A stretch of 9,552 nt of DNA from a virus (taxonomy: Duplodnaviria > Heunggongvirae > Uroviricota > Caudoviricetes). The position numbers and the translations under genes are program-made. The DNA lies in the IMG/VR virus record IMGVR_UViG_3300014922_000029; one strand, given 5' to 3'. This document shows positions 1,121-8,289 of the stretch, in pieces (the first letter of the stretch is position 1; every line of letters starts with the position of its first letter). A model generated the notes under the pieces. The model saw nothing but the letters and a program-made list of their open reading frames with translations. It was not told the origin of the DNA and searched no databases.

Positions 1121-1471
1121 TTAAGGTTGTGATTCCGGTGGAGTCTTCAGAGAACCAGTAATTCTTCCCGGTAGATTTCCTTTGTAGGTTATCCATACAT
1201 TCTGCGCCTCTAAAATTACGGGGCGCTTTTCCGGCAACGGTTCGTTCCCTTCACATAACCCGGCAGCAACATCCATGAAAAACTGCTTCGCCTGCTTTTT
1301 CGCCTCAGCTTCGTAAAACTCCAGCGTGGCACCTTCAGTACGGTCAAGACTAATCGCCACATTTGGCAACAACAGTGACGGATACCCACCAATTTCCAGT
1401 GCCACAGTAACAGTAATCTTATCCGGGTAATGATTTATCCCTTTAACAACCAGTTCGTATTTTTTCTTCAT
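1121..1471 (-). CDS. Hypothetical protein between holin and endolysin, YdfR-like (DUF1327 family as I recall)
   Basis: 116-aa ORF with ATG at 1471, GGAGAG Shine-Dalgarno about 8 nt upstream, and start 4 nt after the holin stop (TAA-AGCG-ATG). Its position between the S-like and R-like genes matches the essQ-ydfR-rrrQ order of the K-12 Qin prophage. Family assignment is from memory. Confidence 0.6.
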   Translation of the reverse strand: MKKKYELVVKGINHYPDKITVTVALEIGGYPSLLLPNVAISLDRTEGATLEFYEAEAKKQAKQFFMDVAAGLCEGNEPLPEKRPVILEAQNVWITYKGNLPGRITGSLKTPPESQP

Positions 1472-1475
1472 CGCT

Positions 1476-1691
1476 TTACTCTCCCCGGGCCGCCTTACGC
1501 CGGTCTTCTTTAATTTTGAAATACAGGTTCGTCAGGTACGTCAGCAGACCAAACAGCAGACTCCCCAGCACGCCTATTGCCGCCCACTGAGACGGGGAAA
1601 CCCTGTCCAGCAACTGCAGGAACCAGTAGCCCGTTCCCACCGCTGACGTGGTGTATGACACACCTGTTGTGATTTTTTCCATCTGGTACAT
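1476..1691 (-). CDS. S: Class II holin (S21-like pinholin) with dual-start motif (Met1 and Met4)
   Basis: 71-aa [74 protein letters not shown] with two TM segments and a charged C-terminus, closely resembling phage 21 S21. GGGAGA Shine-Dalgarno 6-7 nt upstream. The two in-frame starts MYQM fit the antiholin/holin arrangement. Confidence 0.85.
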
Positions 1692-1766
1692 ACCCCGTCT
1701 CCCGTACTCGGAAGCTCACAACAACAAAAGGGCCACCAGCTCTTTACTGATGACCCTGACTCACCG

Positions 1767-2057
1767 TTACAGCATTGTGCCCGATTCTGGCTGTGTGTCT
1801 GTCATATCCGTCACCGGTGACTCCGGCTGAATATCACCATTTTCCGTGGTGACATCTTCCGCCTGTGGTTCCGGAAGCAGTTCCGGGGATGGTTCCGGCT
1901 GTGCACCAAGCAATTCATCCAGAATTGAATCCACTTCTGCATCAAGACGCGCCTCAAGGTTCTGCCGAAGTTGCTGTTTCAGTGCGCTCCGGACTTCTTC
2001 AGAGCGCAGGACTTCCTTCACTGCCTCAGCAGTGACCAGCGATTTTATTTCTGACAT
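1767..2057 (-). CDS. Hypothetical acidic protein, 96 aa (helical N-terminus, Pro/Glu/Asp-rich tail)
   Basis: Internal ATG at 2057..2055 of the track ORF 1767..2231; sequence MSEIKSLVTAEAVKEVLRSEEVRSALKQQL...TDMTDTQPESGTML. The longer N-terminal extension would overlap the upstream ORF and reads as low-complexity junk. Shine-Dalgarno is weak (GAGA). Confidence 0.45.
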   Translation of the reverse strand: MSEIKSLVTAEAVKEVLRSEEVRSALKQQLRQNLEARLDAEVDSILDELLGAQPEPSPELLPEPQAEDVTTENGDIQPESPVTDMTDTQPESGTML

Positions 2058-2082
2058 AGGATTTTCTCGTTGAAAGGGGTTA

Positions 2083-2277
2083 TTAAGAAGGTTGTTCCGG
2101 AATGAGTGGGGCTTCTGTTTTTGCTCCGGCTGACTGACTGGCGCTGATTTTCTCTGCGGCCCTTTTATCAATCTGCCTGCGCCAGAAATCGCGCACTGCC
2201 CTGTACCCACCCGAAAGAAGATACAGCACACAGACCGCCGTACAGAAGTACAGCATCACCTGATGAACAAATGTCAT
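2083..2277 (-). CDS. Hypothetical small membrane protein, 64 aa (one N-terminal TM helix, charged tail)
   Basis: ATG at 2277; MTFVHQVMLYFCTAVCVLYLLSGGY hydrophobic segment. Co-directional and closely spaced with the 96-aa ORF (25-nt gap). Confidence 0.4.
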   Translation of the reverse strand: MTFVHQVMLYFCTAVCVLYLLSGGYRAVRDFWRRQIDKRAAEKISASQSAGAKTEAPLIPEQPS

Positions 2278-2374
2278 AGTTTCTTACCGTTATGGTTGAC
2301 AATGAGAACTGTTTTCATTTAAAAAACCGATATACGAAAGCATCTTTTCTTTACATTCTCCATTGGGATTACCT

Positions 2375-2411
2375 CCGCCAGCTTCCGTTCCTGCCGCTGG
2401 CGGCTTTTTTT
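2375..2411 (+). terminator. Plus-strand intrinsic terminator in the intergenic region 3' of nanS-p
   Basis: ccgccagc (2375-2382) pairs with gctggcgg (2396-2403); alternatively a short gccg-ctgg-cggc hairpin. Followed by ttttttt at 2405-2411. On the minus strand the hairpin is preceded, not followed, by the T-run, so it is oriented for plus-strand transcription. Confidence 0.4.
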
Positions 2412-2416
2412 GCCGG

Positions 2417-4405
2417 TTATGATGATGCCCGGCTTTCGTTAACTTTGACTGTGACCGTATCAAGCAGTACAGGATACGTCGCTTTTGCCCCCGTGATATC
2501 TGTCAGCGTCAGCGTATCTGCTGTAAAGCCATCATTTGTCCACATCACAAGGTCAAACGCCGTCTGCTCTGTACCATCAATCACCGGAACGACTCTTTCG
2601 CTGTTATTTCCCGCAAAGCGGAAAACAACCGTATGCCAGTTATGGTCAAACGCACCAAATGTACCCAGTTGTGCATTCGACGTGCCCTTGTGGTGCATAA
2701 GATTCAGATTTGATGCATCCGTCTGAAGGAAGAATGATGCCAGCATACTGTTTGCTGCCGCGCCTGACGCCCACTGCGACACCGGCCAGTAGAGACCAAA
2801 GACAAACTGTCCGTTCACCAGTTCGCTTCCATCCGGAATTTTGAACCGTACGGCAATTTCACCCCCCTTGCTGAGAAGATTTTTTGCCTCCTCCACTGCA
2901 ACAGTACAGAACATTTTCCAGGACGTCAGTTTACCGGGCTGTTTTTCCAGTCGCAGCGCTTTCCGTCCACCGTCATCAGTCACAGTGCCTTTGCCACCGG
3001 CAGCCCCCCACTGCTGCTCTGTCCATACACCATTTCCACTGTTCGCATCATATTCAGCCACCGTCCTGGTACTGCTCACGGCCTCATCATGACCAGTACC
3101 AGCAACACCGCCATCCTGCGGTTTCTCAACACCCGGTACCCCCGGACTGACATCATCACCGGGAGTTGTACCACCCGACTGCGGTGCGCTCTGCCCGGTA
3201 AGGAACGATAATGTCCGCCCGGCGTACTGCAAAATGGCACCTGCCAGGCGGTCTGAAACAATGCCTCTTCGCGCCCATGAACTGAAGTGCGTTTTACGAT
3301 CGGCTGACGTCCAGTTACTGGCAGTGCGTGACGCAGCGCCATAGTATCCCGCCGGGATAATGTCCGGATCTTCTGACGGCTCGTTTGTCGGCACATTCAC
3401 ACCATGCTCATCCGTCATCAACGGCACAAAGTGAATATTCTGCGCAGCTTTGCCTTTATACCCACCGTAAACCGCCTCATACGGCGCTGCATACCTTTCC
3501 TTCCAGTAGTACGTGGTATCACCGCAAATCCACGGGACGCTGGCCGTTGTCCCGCCAGTACACTGCTCTGCCACATCTGCCAGTTCCGTACGGAACTGAT
3601 TTACCATGGCAAGGAAAAGCGCATTGTGTTCTGCATGTCTCCCCGAACTGACATCTTTTTCTCCCTGCATCCAAATCACTGATAACAGCACGTTCTTCGG
3701 ATTTTTCTTCAGGGCCGCACGGGTTCTGCTGACCAGGTCATAATACAGCGGTTTATCCGCCCCCCACAGGGACGAGCCTGCGGTCGCTCCCGACGCTGCG
3801 TTAAACGCCCCCTCGGCCCCCGCAGTAAATCCCGAATCGCCACGGCCACATGGAACAAGAAGGATACCCGCATTCGCAGGCATAAACGGCAGCAGCTTTT
3901 TGGCAACATGCAGAGCATGCCCCACACAACCGTACTGCCCTTTATTAAGGTCCGCTTCAGGATGATTCAGGTTACTCATATCCTGCACATCATGCAGACA
4001 GTGGTCTGCCGGAATGATGTCGTTATATTTACAGGCGGCACCACCCGGCGTCACCGTACTGCGACGCGCCAGCTGTTTAATACGCGGGTCCGGACGGTCA
4101 TATGTCTCCGGCAGCGGCAGCCCTTCCCCAAAAGACATTGAGTTTGACTGCCCCGCCAGAACAACAACAAAGTAATACTCCGGTTCGCTGGTGGTGCTGA
4201 TAACTGTGCCTTCTCCATCCGACGGCTTCACCACCACAGGTGTGGTGACATCACCTTCCGCCGCAATGGCCTGCATCAGGGTATAAGGCGTGATGGCGAC
4301 AGGGCTGCCAAATGGCTGCCACCCCTCCTTCAGTTTTTGTGTCAGTCGCTCCGCAAGGTCTGACGGCGACGCCGCCCTGACCACATCGTAGTGTTTAAAT
4401 GTCAT
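2417..4405 (-). CDS. nanS-p: Prophage-encoded sialate O-acetylesterase of the NanS-p type (N-terminal DUF1737-like region, SGNH/SASA esterase core, C-terminal probable carbohydrate-binding region)
   Basis: 662-aa ORF. N-terminus MTFKHYDVVRAASPSDLAERLTQKLKEGWQPFG and the esterase motif VVLAGQSNSMSFG match the NanS-p family found between stx and the lysis genes in Stx phages. Size and position between the moron locus and the lysis cassette fit. Confidence 0.85.
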   Translation of the reverse strand: MTFKHYDVVRAASPSDLAERLTQKLKEGWQPFGSPVAITPYTLMQAIAAEGDVTTPVVVKPSDGEGTVISTTSEPEYYFVVVLAGQSNSMSFGEGLPLPETYDRPDPRIKQLARRSTVTPGGAACKYNDIIPADHCLHDVQDMSNLNHPEADLNKGQYGCVGHALHVAKKLLPFMPANAGILLVPCGRGDSGFTAGAEGAFNAASGATAGSSLWGADKPLYYDLVSRTRAALKKNPKNVLLSVIWMQGEKDVSSGRHAEHNALFLAMVNQFRTELADVAEQCTGGTTASVPWICGDTTYYWKERYAAPYEAVYGGYKGKAAQNIHFVPLMTDEHGVNVPTNEPSEDPDIIPAGYYGAASRTASNWTSADRKTHFSSWARRGIVSDRLAGAILQYAGRTLSFLTGQSAPQSGGTTPGDDVSPGVPGVEKPQDGGVAGTGHDEAVSSTRTVAEYDANSGNGVWTEQQWGAAGGKGTVTDDGGRKALRLEKQPGKLTSWKMFCTVAVEEAKNLLSKGGEIAVRFKIPDGSELVNGQFVFGLYWPVSQWASGAAANSMLASFFLQTDASNLNLMHHKGTSNAQLGTFGAFDHNWHTVVFRFAGNNSERVVPVIDGTEQTAFDLVMWTNDGFTADTLTLTDITGAKATYPVLLDTVTVKVNESRASS

Positions 4406-4502: not shown

Positions 4503-4533
4503 ATACGAAAAAGGCCGCGCAGTTGCGCAGCCT
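4503..4533 (-). terminator. Intrinsic terminator (minus strand) between the lipoprotein moron and nanS-p
   Basis: Minus-strand RNA aggcugcgc-aacu-gcgcggccu forms a 9-bp stem including one U-G pair, followed by uuuuucguauu. Confidence 0.65.
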
Positions 4534-4586
4534 TATGAATTCTGGTTAAAATCCATTCGATTATAAAAATGTATATCTCATGCTGT

Positions 4587-4616
4587 NNNNNNNNNNNNNN
4601 NNNNNNNNNNNNNNNN
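4587..4616. other. Run of 30 N (gap or masked sequence) in the non-coding stretch
   Basis: Literal n characters in the sequence. Confidence 1.
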
Positions 4617-4885
4617 AGAAAGCCCCTCCGGAGAGGGGCTGGAGAGTGGCGCTATGTGCCATTGCATGGTGCCGGGTGCCTCCCGGTGAGTTCAGCCCGG
4701 TGACACTAAACCCGCATATTCTCGCTTACGATCATCAAAGAGATCATACCGTTCACCAGTCGCCCCTCCGCACAGGGGGATTCACCATGCGAAATTTTTT
4801 TAACAAATGCTCAGTCTGACAGGCAACTGTCAACTTACTGAATTGTGAGGAATTTAACACTTCACAGCACAATATCTTTCCAGCG

Positions 4886-4927
4886 CCCCAAAATCATCAG
4901 GACAGGAGAAAATCTTCTCCCCCTGTC
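4886..4927 (-). terminator. Possible terminator hairpin overlapping the lipoprotein stop codon
   Basis: gacaggagaa (4901-4910) pairs with ttctcc(ccc)tgtc (4915-4927) around loop aatc, with a 3-nt bulge. On the minus strand it is followed by an interrupted T-run (cugaugauuuugg). Weak. Confidence 0.3.
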
Positions 4928-5354
4928 AGAGTTTAAAATCCAGCACGCCATTTCTAAATGCTTTATATACTCCTGAAGACGGTGGTGATGGTATATCAGC
5001 ATTCTTTACTGCATTCATCGCTTCACGACATAAATCGGGATCACCGCTTTCTCTTTTAACCTGTAGCAGAAGACCATTCGGGGCCATATACATTCTCAGT
5101 GAACACTCTTTTCCTGAATACTTACTCGCATCCTTTAACTGTTCTTCTATGGCTTTCCTGACCTGAATGGCATACTGCCTGATTTCTTCACTGGCATCAG
5201 GGGTACGTTCCGATGAGCTCAAATTTTGCGACTTTATTAATTTATCTGAGTGATACAGAGAAGCATCATAATTATTTGTCGATACATCTTTTGTGCAGCC
5301 AGTTGTCAGACTGGCTAATATCAAAACAAGAACTGGTACAGCACGGCAATACAT
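4926..5354 (-). CDS. Lipoprotein with a TolA C-terminal (domain III)-like domain; predicted Lol-sorted outer-membrane lipoprotein
   Basis: 142-aa ORF; ATG at 5354 with GGAG Shine-Dalgarno about 9 nt upstream. Signal peptide MYCRAVPVLVLILASLTTGC with lipobox L-T-T-G-C and no Asp at +2. The C-terminal 85 residues (IRQYAIQVRKAIEEQLKDASKYSGKECSLRMYMAPNGLLLQVKRESGDPDLCREAMNAVKNADIPSPPSSGVYKAFRNGVLDFKL) align along their length with E. coli TolA domain III as I recall it (...YAGQIKSAIESKFYDASSYAGKTCTLRIKLAPDGMLLDIKPEGGDPALCQAALAAAKLAKIPKPPSQAVYEVFKNAPLDFKP). The gene and its upstream region are AT-rich relative to neighbours. Confidence 0.75.
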   Translation of the reverse strand: MYCRAVPVLVLILASLTTGCTKDVSTNNYDASLYHSDKLIKSQNLSSSERTPDASEEIRQYAIQVRKAIEEQLKDASKYSGKECSLRMYMAPNGLLLQVKRESGDPDLCREAMNAVKNADIPSPPSSGVYKAFRNGVLDFKL

Positions 5355-5632: not shown

Positions 5633-5709
5633 TGGACCGCCATCGAGGACTCGAACCCCGCGCAGCCAGCTTCGAAGGCTGGCGCTCTATCCCGATGAGC
5701 TAATGGCGG
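5633..5709 (-). tRNA. tRNA-Arg, anticodon UCG (reads CGA/CGG)
   Basis: Reverse complement folds as a cloverleaf by hand: acceptor ccgccat/atggcgg, D stem gctc/gagc, anticodon stem ccagc/gctgg with loop cuUCGaa, T arm cgggg-ttcgagt-cctcg, discriminator U, encoded CCA. Unusual C1:G72 first pair. Confidence 0.8.
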
Positions 5710-5718
5710 TATGTGATA

Positions 5719-5794
5719 TGGTGGCCCTTGCTGGATTTGAACCAGCGACCTGGCGATTATGAGTCGCTCGCTCTCACCACTGAGCTAAAGGGCC
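5719..5794 (-). tRNA. tRNA-Ile2 type (anticodon CAU, lysidine-modified in vivo; formally could be tRNA-Met)
   Basis: Reverse complement ggccctttagctcagtggtgagagcgagcgactCATaatcgccaggtcgctggttcaaatccagcaagggccacca folds as a canonical cloverleaf and is near-identical in layout to E. coli ileX-type tRNA as I remember it; encoded CCA. Stx-type phages carry an ileZ-arg tRNA cluster at this position. Confidence 0.85.
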
Positions 5795-5834: not shown

Positions 5835-6893
5835 TCATCCGTTCTGACTGACTAAATTCTGAACTTCCCTGACCGTCTGCTCAAAACGCTCAGTCTCCAG
5901 CTCAACGCCAGTTGCACGACGTCCCAGCGCTATCGCTGCTTTGACTGTCGAACCTGACCCCATGAAGAAATCTGCAACCAGGTCACCCGGACGACTGCTC
6001 GCGCTGATTATCTGCTGCAGCATTTCTGCCGGTTTTTCGCACGGATGTTTCCCGGGATAGTACTGCACCGGTTTATGCGTCCACACATCGGTGTACGGCA
6101 CCTGCACCGTCACACCAAAATACCGCCGCAGATGCTTATATTCACTCTGCAGTTCCGTATACTGCCGGTTCAGTTCACTGTATGTGCTGACCAGTTGGTG
6201 ATGTGGCTTTTCCAGTTCTCCGCGCTGATGCTTATCTTCTGCCACCCGGGCAAACAGCGCCTGTAATTTCAGATAATCGCTTTCGTCCGGTAGCTGCCAC
6301 TGGCTGGCACTGAACCAGTGCGACACCATGTTTTTCTTTCCTGTGGCATCAGCAATCTGTTTTGCCGTTATCCCCAGGGCAGCACGCGCATCACGAAAGT
6401 AAGAAATCAGCGGGGCCATCACATGCTGTTTCAGTGCCCTGCCCTTCGCCTCATACCCGGCATCTTTCGGGCGATACGGCCCCTGATAATGTTCCGCGAA
6501 CAGAATGCGCTCTGTGGCGGGGAAATATGCCCTCAGGCTTTCCTTGTTGCACCCGTTCCAGCGTCCGGACGGCTTCGCCCAGATAATATGGTTCAGCACA
6601 TTGAAGCGTTCACGCATCATGATTTCAATGTCAGACGCCAGGCGATGGCCACAGAACAGGTAAAGACTTCCGGCAGGTTTCAGCACCCGCCAGAACTGCG
6701 CAAGACACTGGTCCAGCCACTTCAGGTAATCATCGTCGCCCTTCCACTGGTTATCCCAGCCCTCAGGCTTCACTTTAAAGTACGGCGGGTCCGTGACTAT
6801 CAGGTCAACAGAATTTTCGGGTAACGACCGGATAAATTCCAGGCAGTCGGCGTTGATTAACTCACAACTGGATATTTTTACAGTACTAAGCAT
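5835..6893 (-). CDS. DNA methyltransferase, beta-class amino-methyltransferase (DPPY catalytic motif near the N-terminus, FxGxG SAM-binding motif near the C-terminus); most likely N6-adenine
   Basis: 352-aa ORF with VTDPPYF at residues about 33-39 and DFFMGSGST near residue 310; this motif order defines the beta group. No restriction endonuclease gene nearby, so an orphan methyltransferase. Shine-Dalgarno at the ATG (6893) is weak. Confidence 0.85.
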   Translation of the reverse strand: MLSTVKISSCELINADCLEFIRSLPENSVDLIVTDPPYFKVKPEGWDNQWKGDDDYLKWLDQCLAQFWRVLKPAGSLYLFCGHRLASDIEIMMRERFNVLNHIIWAKPSGRWNGCNKESLRAYFPATERILFAEHYQGPYRPKDAGYEAKGRALKQHVMAPLISYFRDARAALGITAKQIADATGKKNMVSHWFSASQWQLPDESDYLKLQALFARVAEDKHQRGELEKPHHQLVSTYSELNRQYTELQSEYKHLRRYFGVTVQVPYTDVWTHKPVQYYPGKHPCEKPAEMLQQIISASSRPGDLVADFFMGSGSTVKAAIALGRRATGVELETERFEQTVREVQNLVSQNG

Positions 6894-7467: not shown

Positions 7468-8289
7468 CTATCTGGTCACCTTTTTCAGTTGTTGTTCTGC
7501 CCATGCTTCTTCAATATCAAACTGCACCACCAGCGTATCGTAAAAACGTTTAACTGTTTTTTTCCATGTATCAAGAGATATGGCATCGGTTACATTACAT
7601 ATGGCATTAAATGCCTCCGTTGAAGGTAATCTTTCATAGCCACGCCCACCACAACGCTGACAGTTTCTGAAAACCGGCACACCCTGTTTTTCCGACTCTT
7701 CACGATGAATGGCAACACCGCGCCCACGACAATCTTTACAGGCAGTGGATACCTCTCCCTTCCCTCCACACTCCGGACAGGCAACTTTTACCACCTCCCT
7801 GACTTTTTTCCATTCCTCCCAGTAAGACGGATACACGCCTTTTGTGCACTTTGCCCACACTGGCGGCTTACCATCCGGATACTGGATCTTGTTTGTAAAA
7901 ACCTCGCTTTCAATAAATTTTTTTCCGTGACAGCAGGGGCACTGTTTTTTGCTCGCCGCGCTACGGGCATAATCTTCAAACGCATACGAAGCCATAATAC
8001 GCATCACTGCCGGTTTTATTTCTGCCGGGAGTTTTCTTAACGCCGCCACGCGATCACACCGACTGAGTGCATATTCTGTCAGCAATTCTGTTGCCCGCTC
8101 TCTGTCATTCATACTAATGCCCATTTTCCCAAGGAACGCAGAAAACCCCATCTCAGCCCGATTCTGTGTCATGCCCTGCGCGGCCATCACATCAGTGATA
8201 CTCAGCGCATCTTTCGACGTTGAGGCCGATGCATCAGTCAGGCCGGGGGATTTTGGGGAGTAGTATTTCGGTAAATCTTCCAGTTTCAT
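7468..8289 (-). CDS. Q: Late-gene antitermination protein Q (larger Q type with several CxxC zinc-binding motifs, QuuQ-like)
   Basis: 273-aa ORF. N-terminal MKLEDLPKYYSPKSP...ITDVMAAQGM resembles prophage Q antiterminators as I recall them. CxxC pairs CPCCHG, CPECGG, CKDCRG, CQRCGG. Sits immediately upstream of the pR'/qut-like promoter and tR'. Start overlaps the rusA stop (ATGA). Confidence 0.8.
   Translation of the reverse strand: MKLEDLPKYYSPKSPGLTDASASTSKDALSITDVMAAQGMTQNRAEMGFSAFLGKMGISMNDRERATELLTEYALSRCDRVAALRKLPAEIKPAVMRIMASYAFEDYARSAASKKQCPCCHGKKFIESEVFTNKIQYPDGKPPVWAKCTKGVYPSYWEEWKKVREVVKVACPECGGKGEVSTACKDCRGRGVAIHREESEKQGVPVFRNCQRCGGRGYERLPSTEAFNAICNVTDAISLDTWKKTVKRFYDTLVVQFDIEEAWAEQQLKKVTR

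Follow-up and report, generated by a model that had tools for sequence, protein, structure and literature searches.

The T4 RI/RIII and phage 21 S21-71 antiholins are small late proteins that are encoded in or near the lysis genes, adjust holin timing and are dispensable for lysis, while HK97 gp15-type exclusion factors and D3 Iap-type inhibitor peptides are small membrane proteins with a single pass, which the prophage expresses and which target membrane proteins of the host. The subject of this analysis is a pair of small genes, DUF1378 and DUF826, in a 9,552-nucleotide stretch of the IMG/VR virus record IMGVR_UViG_3300014922_000029 (hereafter the window), which derives from a lambdoid Escherichia coli prophage without Shiga toxin (Stx) genes. 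The pair forms part of a well-supported mobile cassette that resides within late operons and consists of an esterase gene, a convergent PasA/PasC-type small RNA (sRNA), DUF1378, DUF826 and a terminator hairpin. Its place in lambdoid phages, likewise well supported, is in the Q-dependent late operon immediately ahead of the lysis genes.

On the minus strand of the window, the order is esterase, a 139-nt spacer, DUF1378, 25 nt, DUF826, a hairpin with a T-run, the pinholin, a DUF1327 open reading frame (ORF) and a phage lysozyme gene. The cassette and its flanking holin gene comprise the following features:

2417..4405, minus strand: nanS-p-type sialate O-acetylesterase, the upstream neighbour, 662 aa, with Pfam DUF1737, SASA and DUF6645 domains
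2296..2411, plus strand: PasA/PasC-type sRNA gene in the nanS-p/DUF1378 spacer, convergent with nanS-p and divergent from DUF1378
2083..2277, minus strand: DUF1378 gene, 64 aa, ATG start, predicted single-pass inner-membrane protein (ORF and Pfam PF07125)
2058..2082, minus strand: intergenic spacer, 25 nt, in which GAGAA, 7-11 nt ahead of the DUF826 start codon, forms a weak ribosome-binding site
1905..2057, minus strand: DUF826 gene, conserved N-terminal domain (residues 1-51), ATG start (Pfam PF05696 and AlphaFold2)
1767..1904, minus strand: DUF826 disordered acidic tail (residues 52-96) and stop codon (AlphaFold2 and composition)
1719..1757, minus strand: intrinsic-terminator-like hairpin (1757..1729; 12-bp stem, 5-nt loop) and T-rich run
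1476..1691, minus strand: S21-type pinholin, the downstream neighbour, 71 aa, dual starts M1/M4 (PF04971, E 7e-33; phrog_20 / phrog_9876)

The sequence-only reading of this DNA had described two co-directional genes spaced 25 nt apart between nanS-p and the holin gene, and its coordinates, lengths, spacing and composition are all correct. The full DUF826 ORF spans 2057..1767 on the minus strand (96 aa), and the spacer between the two genes measures 19-40 nt across 131 loci.

Both ORFs are well supported as genuine protein genes of the DUF1378 and DUF826 families under purifying selection. The 64-aa protein matches Pfam DUF1378 (PF07125) at 120.1 bits (E 4.5e-35), with residues 1-59 aligned to positions 1-59 of the 59-position model, and matches phrog_494 at E 4.8e-37; the 96-aa protein matches Pfam DUF826 (PF05696) at 98.8 bits (E 1.9e-28) over residues 1-57, and phrog_311 at E 7e-37. 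The curated Pfam cutoff is 25 bits for each family and is exceeded in both cases. In length and in its conserved transmembrane motif, the 64-aa protein is typical of DUF1378. Among distinct DNA alleles from related loci, the median ratio of nonsynonymous to synonymous substitution rates (dN/dS) is 0.15 for DUF1378 (57 alleles) and 0.25 for the DUF826 N-terminal domain (39 alleles). Additionally, the corresponding polymorphism ratio (pN/pS) over the DUF1378 gene is 0.24-0.32 in its own frame and 1.5-2.8 in the two other frames. The earlier label "uncharacterised" holds for function and fails for family membership, since both families are already catalogued, without assigned function, in Pfam and as PHROG 494 and 311, and RefSeq genomes processed by the Prokaryotic Genome Annotation Pipeline (PGAP) already name the products "DUF1378 family protein" and "DUF826 domain-containing protein".

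The genomic contexts of the pair were surveyed in 188 loci collected from IMG/VR, metagenomes, GTDB genomes, assemblies and GenBank phages and then classified; the locus searches aimed at diversity, and the survey counts do not represent population frequencies. The main arrangements are the following:

Esterase, DUF1378, DUF826 and S21 holin: 105 loci
Esterase, DUF1378 and DUF826, with no holin within reach: 34 loci
Esterase, DUF1378 and DUF826, with a downstream flank too short to tell: 18 loci
DUF1378 directly after the Rz spanin gene, without esterase and without DUF826: 17 loci
DUF1378 after a tail-fibre assembly gene: 7 loci
Esterase, DUF1378 and S21 holin, without DUF826: 3 loci

In the largest class the order is invariant, although esterase identity ranges from 48 to 100%. 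DUF1378 stands beside lysis genes in 127 of the 188 loci (110 adjoining an S21-type holin gene and 17 directly after Rz) and away from them in 41, the flanks being too short to tell in the remaining 20. The esterase gene directly precedes DUF1378 in 162 loci and is missing from 24. Three of the seven tail-fibre-linked loci carry a tail-less DUF826 upstream of DUF1378, that is, in reversed order, and such tail-less forms (for example that of locus L124) score 96 bits against the Pfam model. The core, portable element of the cassette is DUF1378; DUF826 is an optional addition.

Record counts in the phage collection, namely 434 for the S21-type holin, 351 for the esterase, 309 for DUF1378 and 307 for DUF826, show that the pair tracks the esterase more closely than the holin. 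The expectation, raised in the sequence-only reading, that the pair might always travel with S21-type holins does not hold: an obligate partnership with this holin is ruled out by the Mu-like loci (34 of the 188 loci, without a nearby holin gene), by holin-only records (434 holin versus 309 DUF1378 records) and by prophage PP2 of enteropathogenic E. coli (EPEC) E2348/69, in which the pair is absent. An obligate partnership with the esterase is ruled out in turn by the Rz-linked and tail-fibre-linked contexts. Taken together, the survey contexts and the record counts indicate that the pair is the obligate partner of neither protein.

The best functional clue is provided by the two contexts in which DUF1378 is linked to Rz; in these distant settings, the DUF1378 homologue is the final or penultimate gene of a lysis operon. 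BUCT709-like phages (17 loci) encode, in order, an S21-type holin, a SAR-type lysozyme, Rz/Rz1, DUF1378 and then a tailspike; in vB_SmeS_BUCT709, a temperate phage, and its relatives, DUF1378 overlaps the Rz stop codon by 4 nt (ATGA), and the Rz-like spanin gene contains an embedded lipoprotein ORF. A prophage of Lonsdalea britannica has a promoter resembling pR' and terminators resembling tR', followed by a lambda-S-type holin (PF05106), a soluble lysozyme, Rz/Rz1 and DUF1378, which again overlaps the Rz stop (ATGA) and precedes a 50-aa acidic helical ORF and a strong terminator. In this stretch (NZ_LUTN01000014.1, locus L100, 6209-6402), the 50-aa ORF between DUF1378 and the terminator has no Pfam match and may be a functional analogue of DUF826; the layout parallels the order DUF1378-DUF826-terminator of E. 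coli. The Rz proteins of the BUCT709 and Lonsdalea phages have no detectable similarity, while their DUF1378 proteins are 61% identical, which indicates that lysis operons of different make-up have acquired the same small gene at their ends. The ATGA overlap suggests translational coupling with Rz. Moreover, no sigma-70-like promoter was found before DUF1378 in the window, nor inside Rz of the BUCT709 and Lonsdalea phages, and its absence from these three settings fits late-only expression.

Two features of the BUCT709 record are noted separately. In OM816835.1 (Stenotrophomonas phage vB_SmeS_BUCT709; locus L083), an unannotated 71-aa S21-type pinholin ORF lies at 2721-2936, just upstream of the annotated lysozyme gene; the GenBank record thus lacks the holin, and it also leaves the embedded Rz1-like lipoprotein ORF (3697-3891) unannotated.

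The downstream boundary of the cassette is defined by the terminator hairpin, which in the window lies 10 nt past the DUF826 stop codon, is followed by TTTGTTGTTG and has a folding energy of -19.3 kcal/mol (z = -4.2). A downstream hairpin of at least 7 bp is present in 42 of 44 distinct sequences from lambdoid and Mu-like loci, and 29 of these 44 also contain at least five T in the next 10 nt. The hairpins are built from 22 different 5' arms, and the preservation of the structure with so many different stems marks a conserved terminator, which in lambdoid phages only Q-modified polymerase would read through. The cassette therefore shows one property expected of a moron, a terminator directly downstream; for the other, a promoter of its own, a crude scan of the gene strand gave no match to the sigma-70 consensus.

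The spacer between nanS-p and DUF1378 is occupied by the sRNA gene, which displays a -35 element TTGACA at 2296-2301, a weak -10 element, an RNA of about 80 nt (about 2331-2411) and a terminator consisting of a GC hairpin that ends at 2403 and a run of seven T (2405-2411). Of 63 distinct spacers, 56 retain this layout, although the spacer sequences fall into four or five unrelated types. Rfam returned only Esr41 for the spacer RNA (2337-2411, 20.5 bits, below the gathering threshold). In E2348/69, PasA is an 85-nt RNA on the minus strand of NC_011601 (743499..743415) located between the esterase gene and the next gene in the orientation "> < >", and its homologues in enterohaemorrhagic E. coli are EcOnc51/52 (PMC8550237 Table S6); an "esterase-PasA-holin-lysozyme" arrangement has been described in a 2026 preprint (bioRxiv 10.64898/2026.05.13.724894). 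The window RNA matches E2348/69 PasA in position, strand and size. It shares with the PasA/PasC sRNAs the location directly after the esterase gene on the opposite strand, a length of about 80-85 nt, the TTGACA -35 element and the hairpin with T-run that characterise this type, and differs from E2348/69 PasA in that the two sequences are only partly alignable. The candidate that the spacer RNA is a new RNA was dropped after this match to the published locus. Neither PMC8550237 nor bioRxiv 10.64898/2026.05.13.724894 mentions the DUF1378 and DUF826 genes.

A second RNA lies upstream of the esterase gene, where Rfam STnc100 matches over its full length (168 bits; 4610-4819, minus strand), with a terminator at 4534..4511. 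This is a PasD/STnc100-type RNA, and by analogy with the pR'/tR' layout in the Lonsdalea locus it may be the short leader RNA of the late promoter.

DUF1378 contains a single hydrophobic stretch (Kyte-Doolittle 1.91 over residues 3-21), preceded by four uncharged residues and followed by six K/R within 15 residues; this charge distribution, read with the positive-inside rule, indicates a single-pass topology with the N-terminus out and the C-terminus in. The protein is well supported as a bitopic inner-membrane protein of roughly 60 aa, with 4-6 periplasmic residues and a predicted transmembrane (TM) helix at about residues 3-25, followed by a predicted basic juxtamembrane helix (26-45) and a short disordered Pro/Glu tail. 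AlphaFold2 places residues 2-50 in one continuous helix with a disordered end, with predicted local distance difference test (pLDDT) scores of 83-92 over residues 1-30. The TM helix is highly conserved (LLYFCTxVCxLYLxSGGY), and its residues L9, Y10, F11, V15, L18, Y19, L20, G23, G24 and Y25 are kept even at 36-60% identity. The cytoplasmic helix carries a conserved RxxxRRxIDxxAAEK motif (D37..A41.K43).

DUF826 is well supported as a cytoplasmic protein that combines a long amphipathic helix with a variable, Pro-rich, acidic, disordered tail ending in a hydrophobic tip. In the AlphaFold2 model, residues 10-17 form a short helix and residues 20-49 an amphipathic one of 30 residues, along which hydrophobic side chains recur every four positions; pLDDT exceeds 90 for residues 21-50. 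The tail (residues 52-96) contains eight Pro and no K/R and has pLDDT below 50 at residues 57-94 and no predicted secondary structure. The whole protein has a calculated isoelectric point (pI) of 4.05 and a net charge of -15. Across 52 full-length variants, the tails vary in length and sequence and keep their composition (17% P, 23% D+E, 0.5% K+R), and 51 of the 52 end in a hydrophobic tip (xTML, MML, MMM, TMM, TLL or TTL), as in VMML, EMMM and STMM. The window carries one of several interchangeable tail types, of 45 residues and ending in GTML. The subfamilies of DUF1378 and DUF826 broadly co-diverge. These predictions bear out what the sequence-only reading had drawn from the translations, namely a membrane protein of 64 aa and a 96-aa protein with a helical N-terminus and an acidic, disordered Pro/Glu tail. 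Searches for relatives yielded no PDB sequence relative of either protein, no NCBIfam match, no match to the PADLOC-DB hidden Markov models at E up to 1, and only noise from Foldseek against viral models, as expected for a single helix. A scan of genome contigs confirmed a single locus, since queries of 50 aa seldom get through its tblastn confirmation. DUF1378 has no holin match in Pfam or PHROG, whereas the neighbouring S21 gene does.

On this basis, we lean, with rather less than even confidence, towards a reading in which the two proteins, made late, act as a membrane anchor and a cytoplasmic adaptor and modulate lysis at its membrane step. Antiterminated read-through from pR' would transcribe the two genes late, together with the lysis genes, and DUF1378 would insert in the inner membrane, where its conserved TM helix may contact a membrane partner, be it a lysis protein or a conserved protein of the host. 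The basic helix next to the membrane could then dock the acidic DUF826, whose flexible tail and hydrophobic tip might reach a third partner or serve as a degradation signal. The net effect would be a tuning of the membrane step, for example in timing or holin triggering, so that the pair would be an accessory rather than an essential lysis component. Inferred parts of this scheme are the contact between DUF1378 and DUF826, the choice of membrane partner and the influence, if any, on lysis. The reading is favoured because of late co-transcription, the lack of a detected own promoter, the recurrent ATGA overlap with unrelated spanin genes and the Lonsdalea layout of a gene pair with a terminator. 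For DUF1378, the homologues that overlap Rz at the ends of lysis operons thus lend some support to the earlier suggestion of lysis-timing regulators, which is the leading, tentative reading.

Several observations weigh against a lysis role. The 34 loci without a holin in reach are Mu-like prophages in which the esterase-DUF1378-DUF826 trio lies between the tail-fibre/gin genes and com/mom, far from any holin gene, and in seven loci DUF1378, with or without a reversed DUF826, follows a tail-fibre assembly gene; such positions outside the S21 context are familiar slots for cargo (morons). The pair is absent from about 125 phage records that have an S21-type holin and is therefore dispensable for S21-type lysis cassettes, and E2348/69 PP2 has the order esterase-PasA-holin with neither DUF1378 nor DUF826 in between. 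The occurrence of DUF1378 with three holin/endolysin set-ups makes a holin-specific contact unlikely, no sequence or fold similarity to a known holin, antiholin or spanin was detected, and no experimental data were found in the literature searched.

The cargo slots also fit the main rival, a possible, somewhat doubtful explanation in which the pair is a moron acting on the host envelope. DUF1378 would be a small intramembrane protein that binds a conserved inner-membrane protein of the host and acts as an inhibitor or exclusion factor, with DUF826 as its cytoplasmic helper, comparable to small prophage proteins that block DNA entry or to peptides that inhibit O-antigen polymerase, and the benefit would lie in superinfection exclusion, surface remodelling alongside the esterase, or progeny protection. 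The occupied positions are typical of cargo (between pR'/tR' and S, after Rz, after tail-fibre assembly genes and by gin/com/mom), the cassette is closed by its own terminator, and it is transferred as a block between lambdoid and Mu-like phages, which share spacer types. Prophage-expressed sRNAs accompany it: PasA lies in the spacer, and an RNA of the PasD/STnc100 type precedes the esterase gene (bioRxiv 10.64898/2026.05.13.724894). Receptor-active proteins (the esterase, tail fibres and the BUCT709 tailspike) are encoded next to it, and the retention of the TM helix across hosts and holin types points to a conserved host partner. However, no own promoter was detected, two phages have the ATGA overlap with Rz, which links expression to the late lysis transcript, the PADLOC defence models gave no match, and experimental support was not found in the literature. 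It is unlikely that the pair instead assists the release, membrane targeting or activity of the NanS-p esterase, which lacks a signal peptide. The immediate adjacency of the esterase gene in 162 of 188 loci, including Mu-like prophages without a nearby holin gene, and the similar numbers of phage records (351 with the esterase, 309 with DUF1378) are what such a helper would predict. Yet 24 Rz-linked and tail-fibre-linked loci have DUF1378 without the esterase, and about 40 esterase-bearing phage records and E2348/69 PP2 have no pair. Moreover, esterase identity falls to 48% in loci whose DUF1378 proteins remain 87-100% identical, a mismatch that indicates recombination between the two genes rather than co-evolution.

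The sequence-only reading had also raised the possibility of a DNA mimic or anti-defence protein; DUF826 would then carry the activity, with DUF1378 unrelated or an anchor. The charge of -15 and pI of 4.05, the small size and phage origin of DUF826, and a tail that varies as an arms race would predict, all suit such a function. Known mimics of the Ocr/ArdA kind, by contrast, present a rigid array of carboxylates, whereas the acidic segment of DUF826 is predicted to be disordered and contains 17% Pro; some members, such as that of L124, lack the tail altogether, the gene lies in a late operon whereas anti-restriction proteins are normally early, and neither a PDB sequence relative, a PADLOC match nor a fold match was obtained. 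This possibility thus found no support and is very unlikely. The proposal that the two frames yield a single fused product, through a +1 frameshift at GAT-AAA-AGG or through the longer ORF of 134-154 aa often annotated by PGAP, can hardly be credited. In many lambdoid alleles the frame upstream of the DUF826 ATG is open for 45-70 codons, and the singleton proteins P0152, P0190 and P0153, together with phrog_8301, resemble DUF1378-DUF826 fusions joined at GAT-AAA-AGG, where a +1 slip is plausible. The extension frame, however, has a non-coding-like pN/pS of 1.5-1.7 versus 0.24-0.32 in the DUF1378 frame, the frame relation between the two genes varies by subfamily (58 alleles at +1, 13 at +2), a stop codon interrupts the extension 5 codons before the DUF826 ATG in one allele, several subfamilies lack the AAA-AGG site, and each fusion protein is a singleton from one contig that a 1-nt loss within an A4 run accounts for. 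Frame inconsistency, an unconserved slippery site and non-coding-like substitutions effectively refute both the frameshift and the single long ORF, and the ATG at 2057 is the real start of DUF826.

Some annotation artefacts concern the same gene. DUF826 is often annotated with a spurious 38-residue N-terminal extension that overlaps DUF1378, as in P0122 and P0126 (134 aa), and in P0218 (2 member sequences, 4 contigs) the holin N-terminus is joined to the DUF826 C-terminus. The chimeric proteins P0152, P0190, P0153 and P0218 are probably mutations or assembly errors. Several 2025 phage records (PV340545.1 annotation) label DUF826 "head completion protein", and nothing in the present data backs this label.

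The segment encoding the pair is present in 1006 of 5426 complete E. coli genomes (about 19%), with a median of 2 and a maximum of 7 copies, and in about 308 of 50,697 phage records, nearly all of which are Stx-converting or other E. coli/Shigella lambdoid phages; these include 933W, VT2-Sakai, phi24B (vb_24B_23 and vb_24B_24) and TL-2011c. The segment in the window is 99.9% identical to several chromosomes. The DUF826 family is tiny: at 50% identity, its members among 1.84 billion proteins fall into only 34 clusters. Three loci (L009, L017 and L020) carry a DUF826 cut off after residue 27, and in three further loci (L130, L134 and L177) a truncated DUF826 is followed by a duplicated esterase fragment; these six disrupted copies indicate that the pair can decay in some prophages. 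A literature search that included locus tags found no functional study of either gene. PMC10462455 was the only paper found to name both DUF families, which it does in passing, and a 2015 paper gives an in silico prediction only of a binding site for the 24B_1 sRNA upstream of vb_24B_23, the phi24B DUF1378 gene (PMC4426718).

Further features of the window lie around the cassette. Directly upstream of the S21 holin start, a stem-loop (CUUCCG-AGUA-CGGGAG; 1699-1714, minus strand), kept in nearly all lambdoid loci, pairs the GGAG of the likely holin ribosome-binding site and may control the use of starts M1/M4. The N-terminal extension of the window holin, MYQ, carries no positive charge, unlike that of the BUCT709 holin (MKM). 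Between the holin and lysozyme genes lies the 116-aa DUF1327 ORF (1121-1471, minus strand), which belongs to a further family without assigned function and is found in some of the related loci only. The window is partly masked: N runs, which appear as X in translation, lie at about 650-780 in the lysozyme gene and at about 4580-4610, directly after the downstream end of the STnc100 match. Farther upstream on the minus strand, a 142-aa ORF (4926-5354), whose N-terminus resembles that of a lipoprotein (LTTGC) and which contains a TolA C-terminal domain (PF06519, E 6e-23), is located between the tRNA genes and the putative late leader RNA and is possibly a cargo gene that imitates TolA. The two tRNA genes (5633-5794, minus strand) are of Arg (anticodon TCG) and Met/Ile type (anticodon CAT) and lie downstream of a DNA methylase gene (5835-6893) and the Q antiterminator gene (7468-8289).

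The finding is an accurate description of two known families without assigned function rather than of a new kind of element. What is added is the synteny picture of a mobile cassette with DUF1378 at its core and a recurrent link to the ends of lysis operons, and its value lies in how widespread this gene pair is next to the toxin and lysis genes of Stx phages, in most of which it lies between toxin/esterase cargo and the lysis genes. Should the pair tune lysis timing, as in the favoured accessory lysis role, it would influence the amounts of toxin and esterase released by the lysogen population; as exclusion or envelope cargo, it would bear on the host range of phages and on competition between prophages in pathogenic E. 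coli. A broader formulation, to be held with some doubt, is that the pair represents an undescribed two-part modulator of lysis or the envelope, in which a portable single-helix anchor at the ends of late and lysis operons would be combined with a cytoplasmic adaptor whose disordered acidic tail bears a conserved, hydrophobic C-terminal motif (xTML/MMM) for docking or degradation. Such a modulator would either set lysis timing, and hence Stx and NanS-p release, or block a conserved host inner-membrane enzyme.

Compared with the described systems, the pair resembles the T4 RI/RIII and S21-71 antiholins in that it comprises small late proteins, one membrane-anchored and one cytoplasmic and helical, encoded in or near the lysis genes. 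It differs from them in that no sequence or fold similarity is found and that DUF1378 occurs with three holin types and also away from holins. The HK97 gp15 and D3 Iap types are expressed from the prophage, whereas DUF1378 has no promoter found and two of its homologues overlap the Rz stop; in size, in the possession of one TM helix, in the cargo slots beside tail and lysis modules and in the conserved intramembrane sequence, DUF1378 and these prophage membrane proteins are alike.

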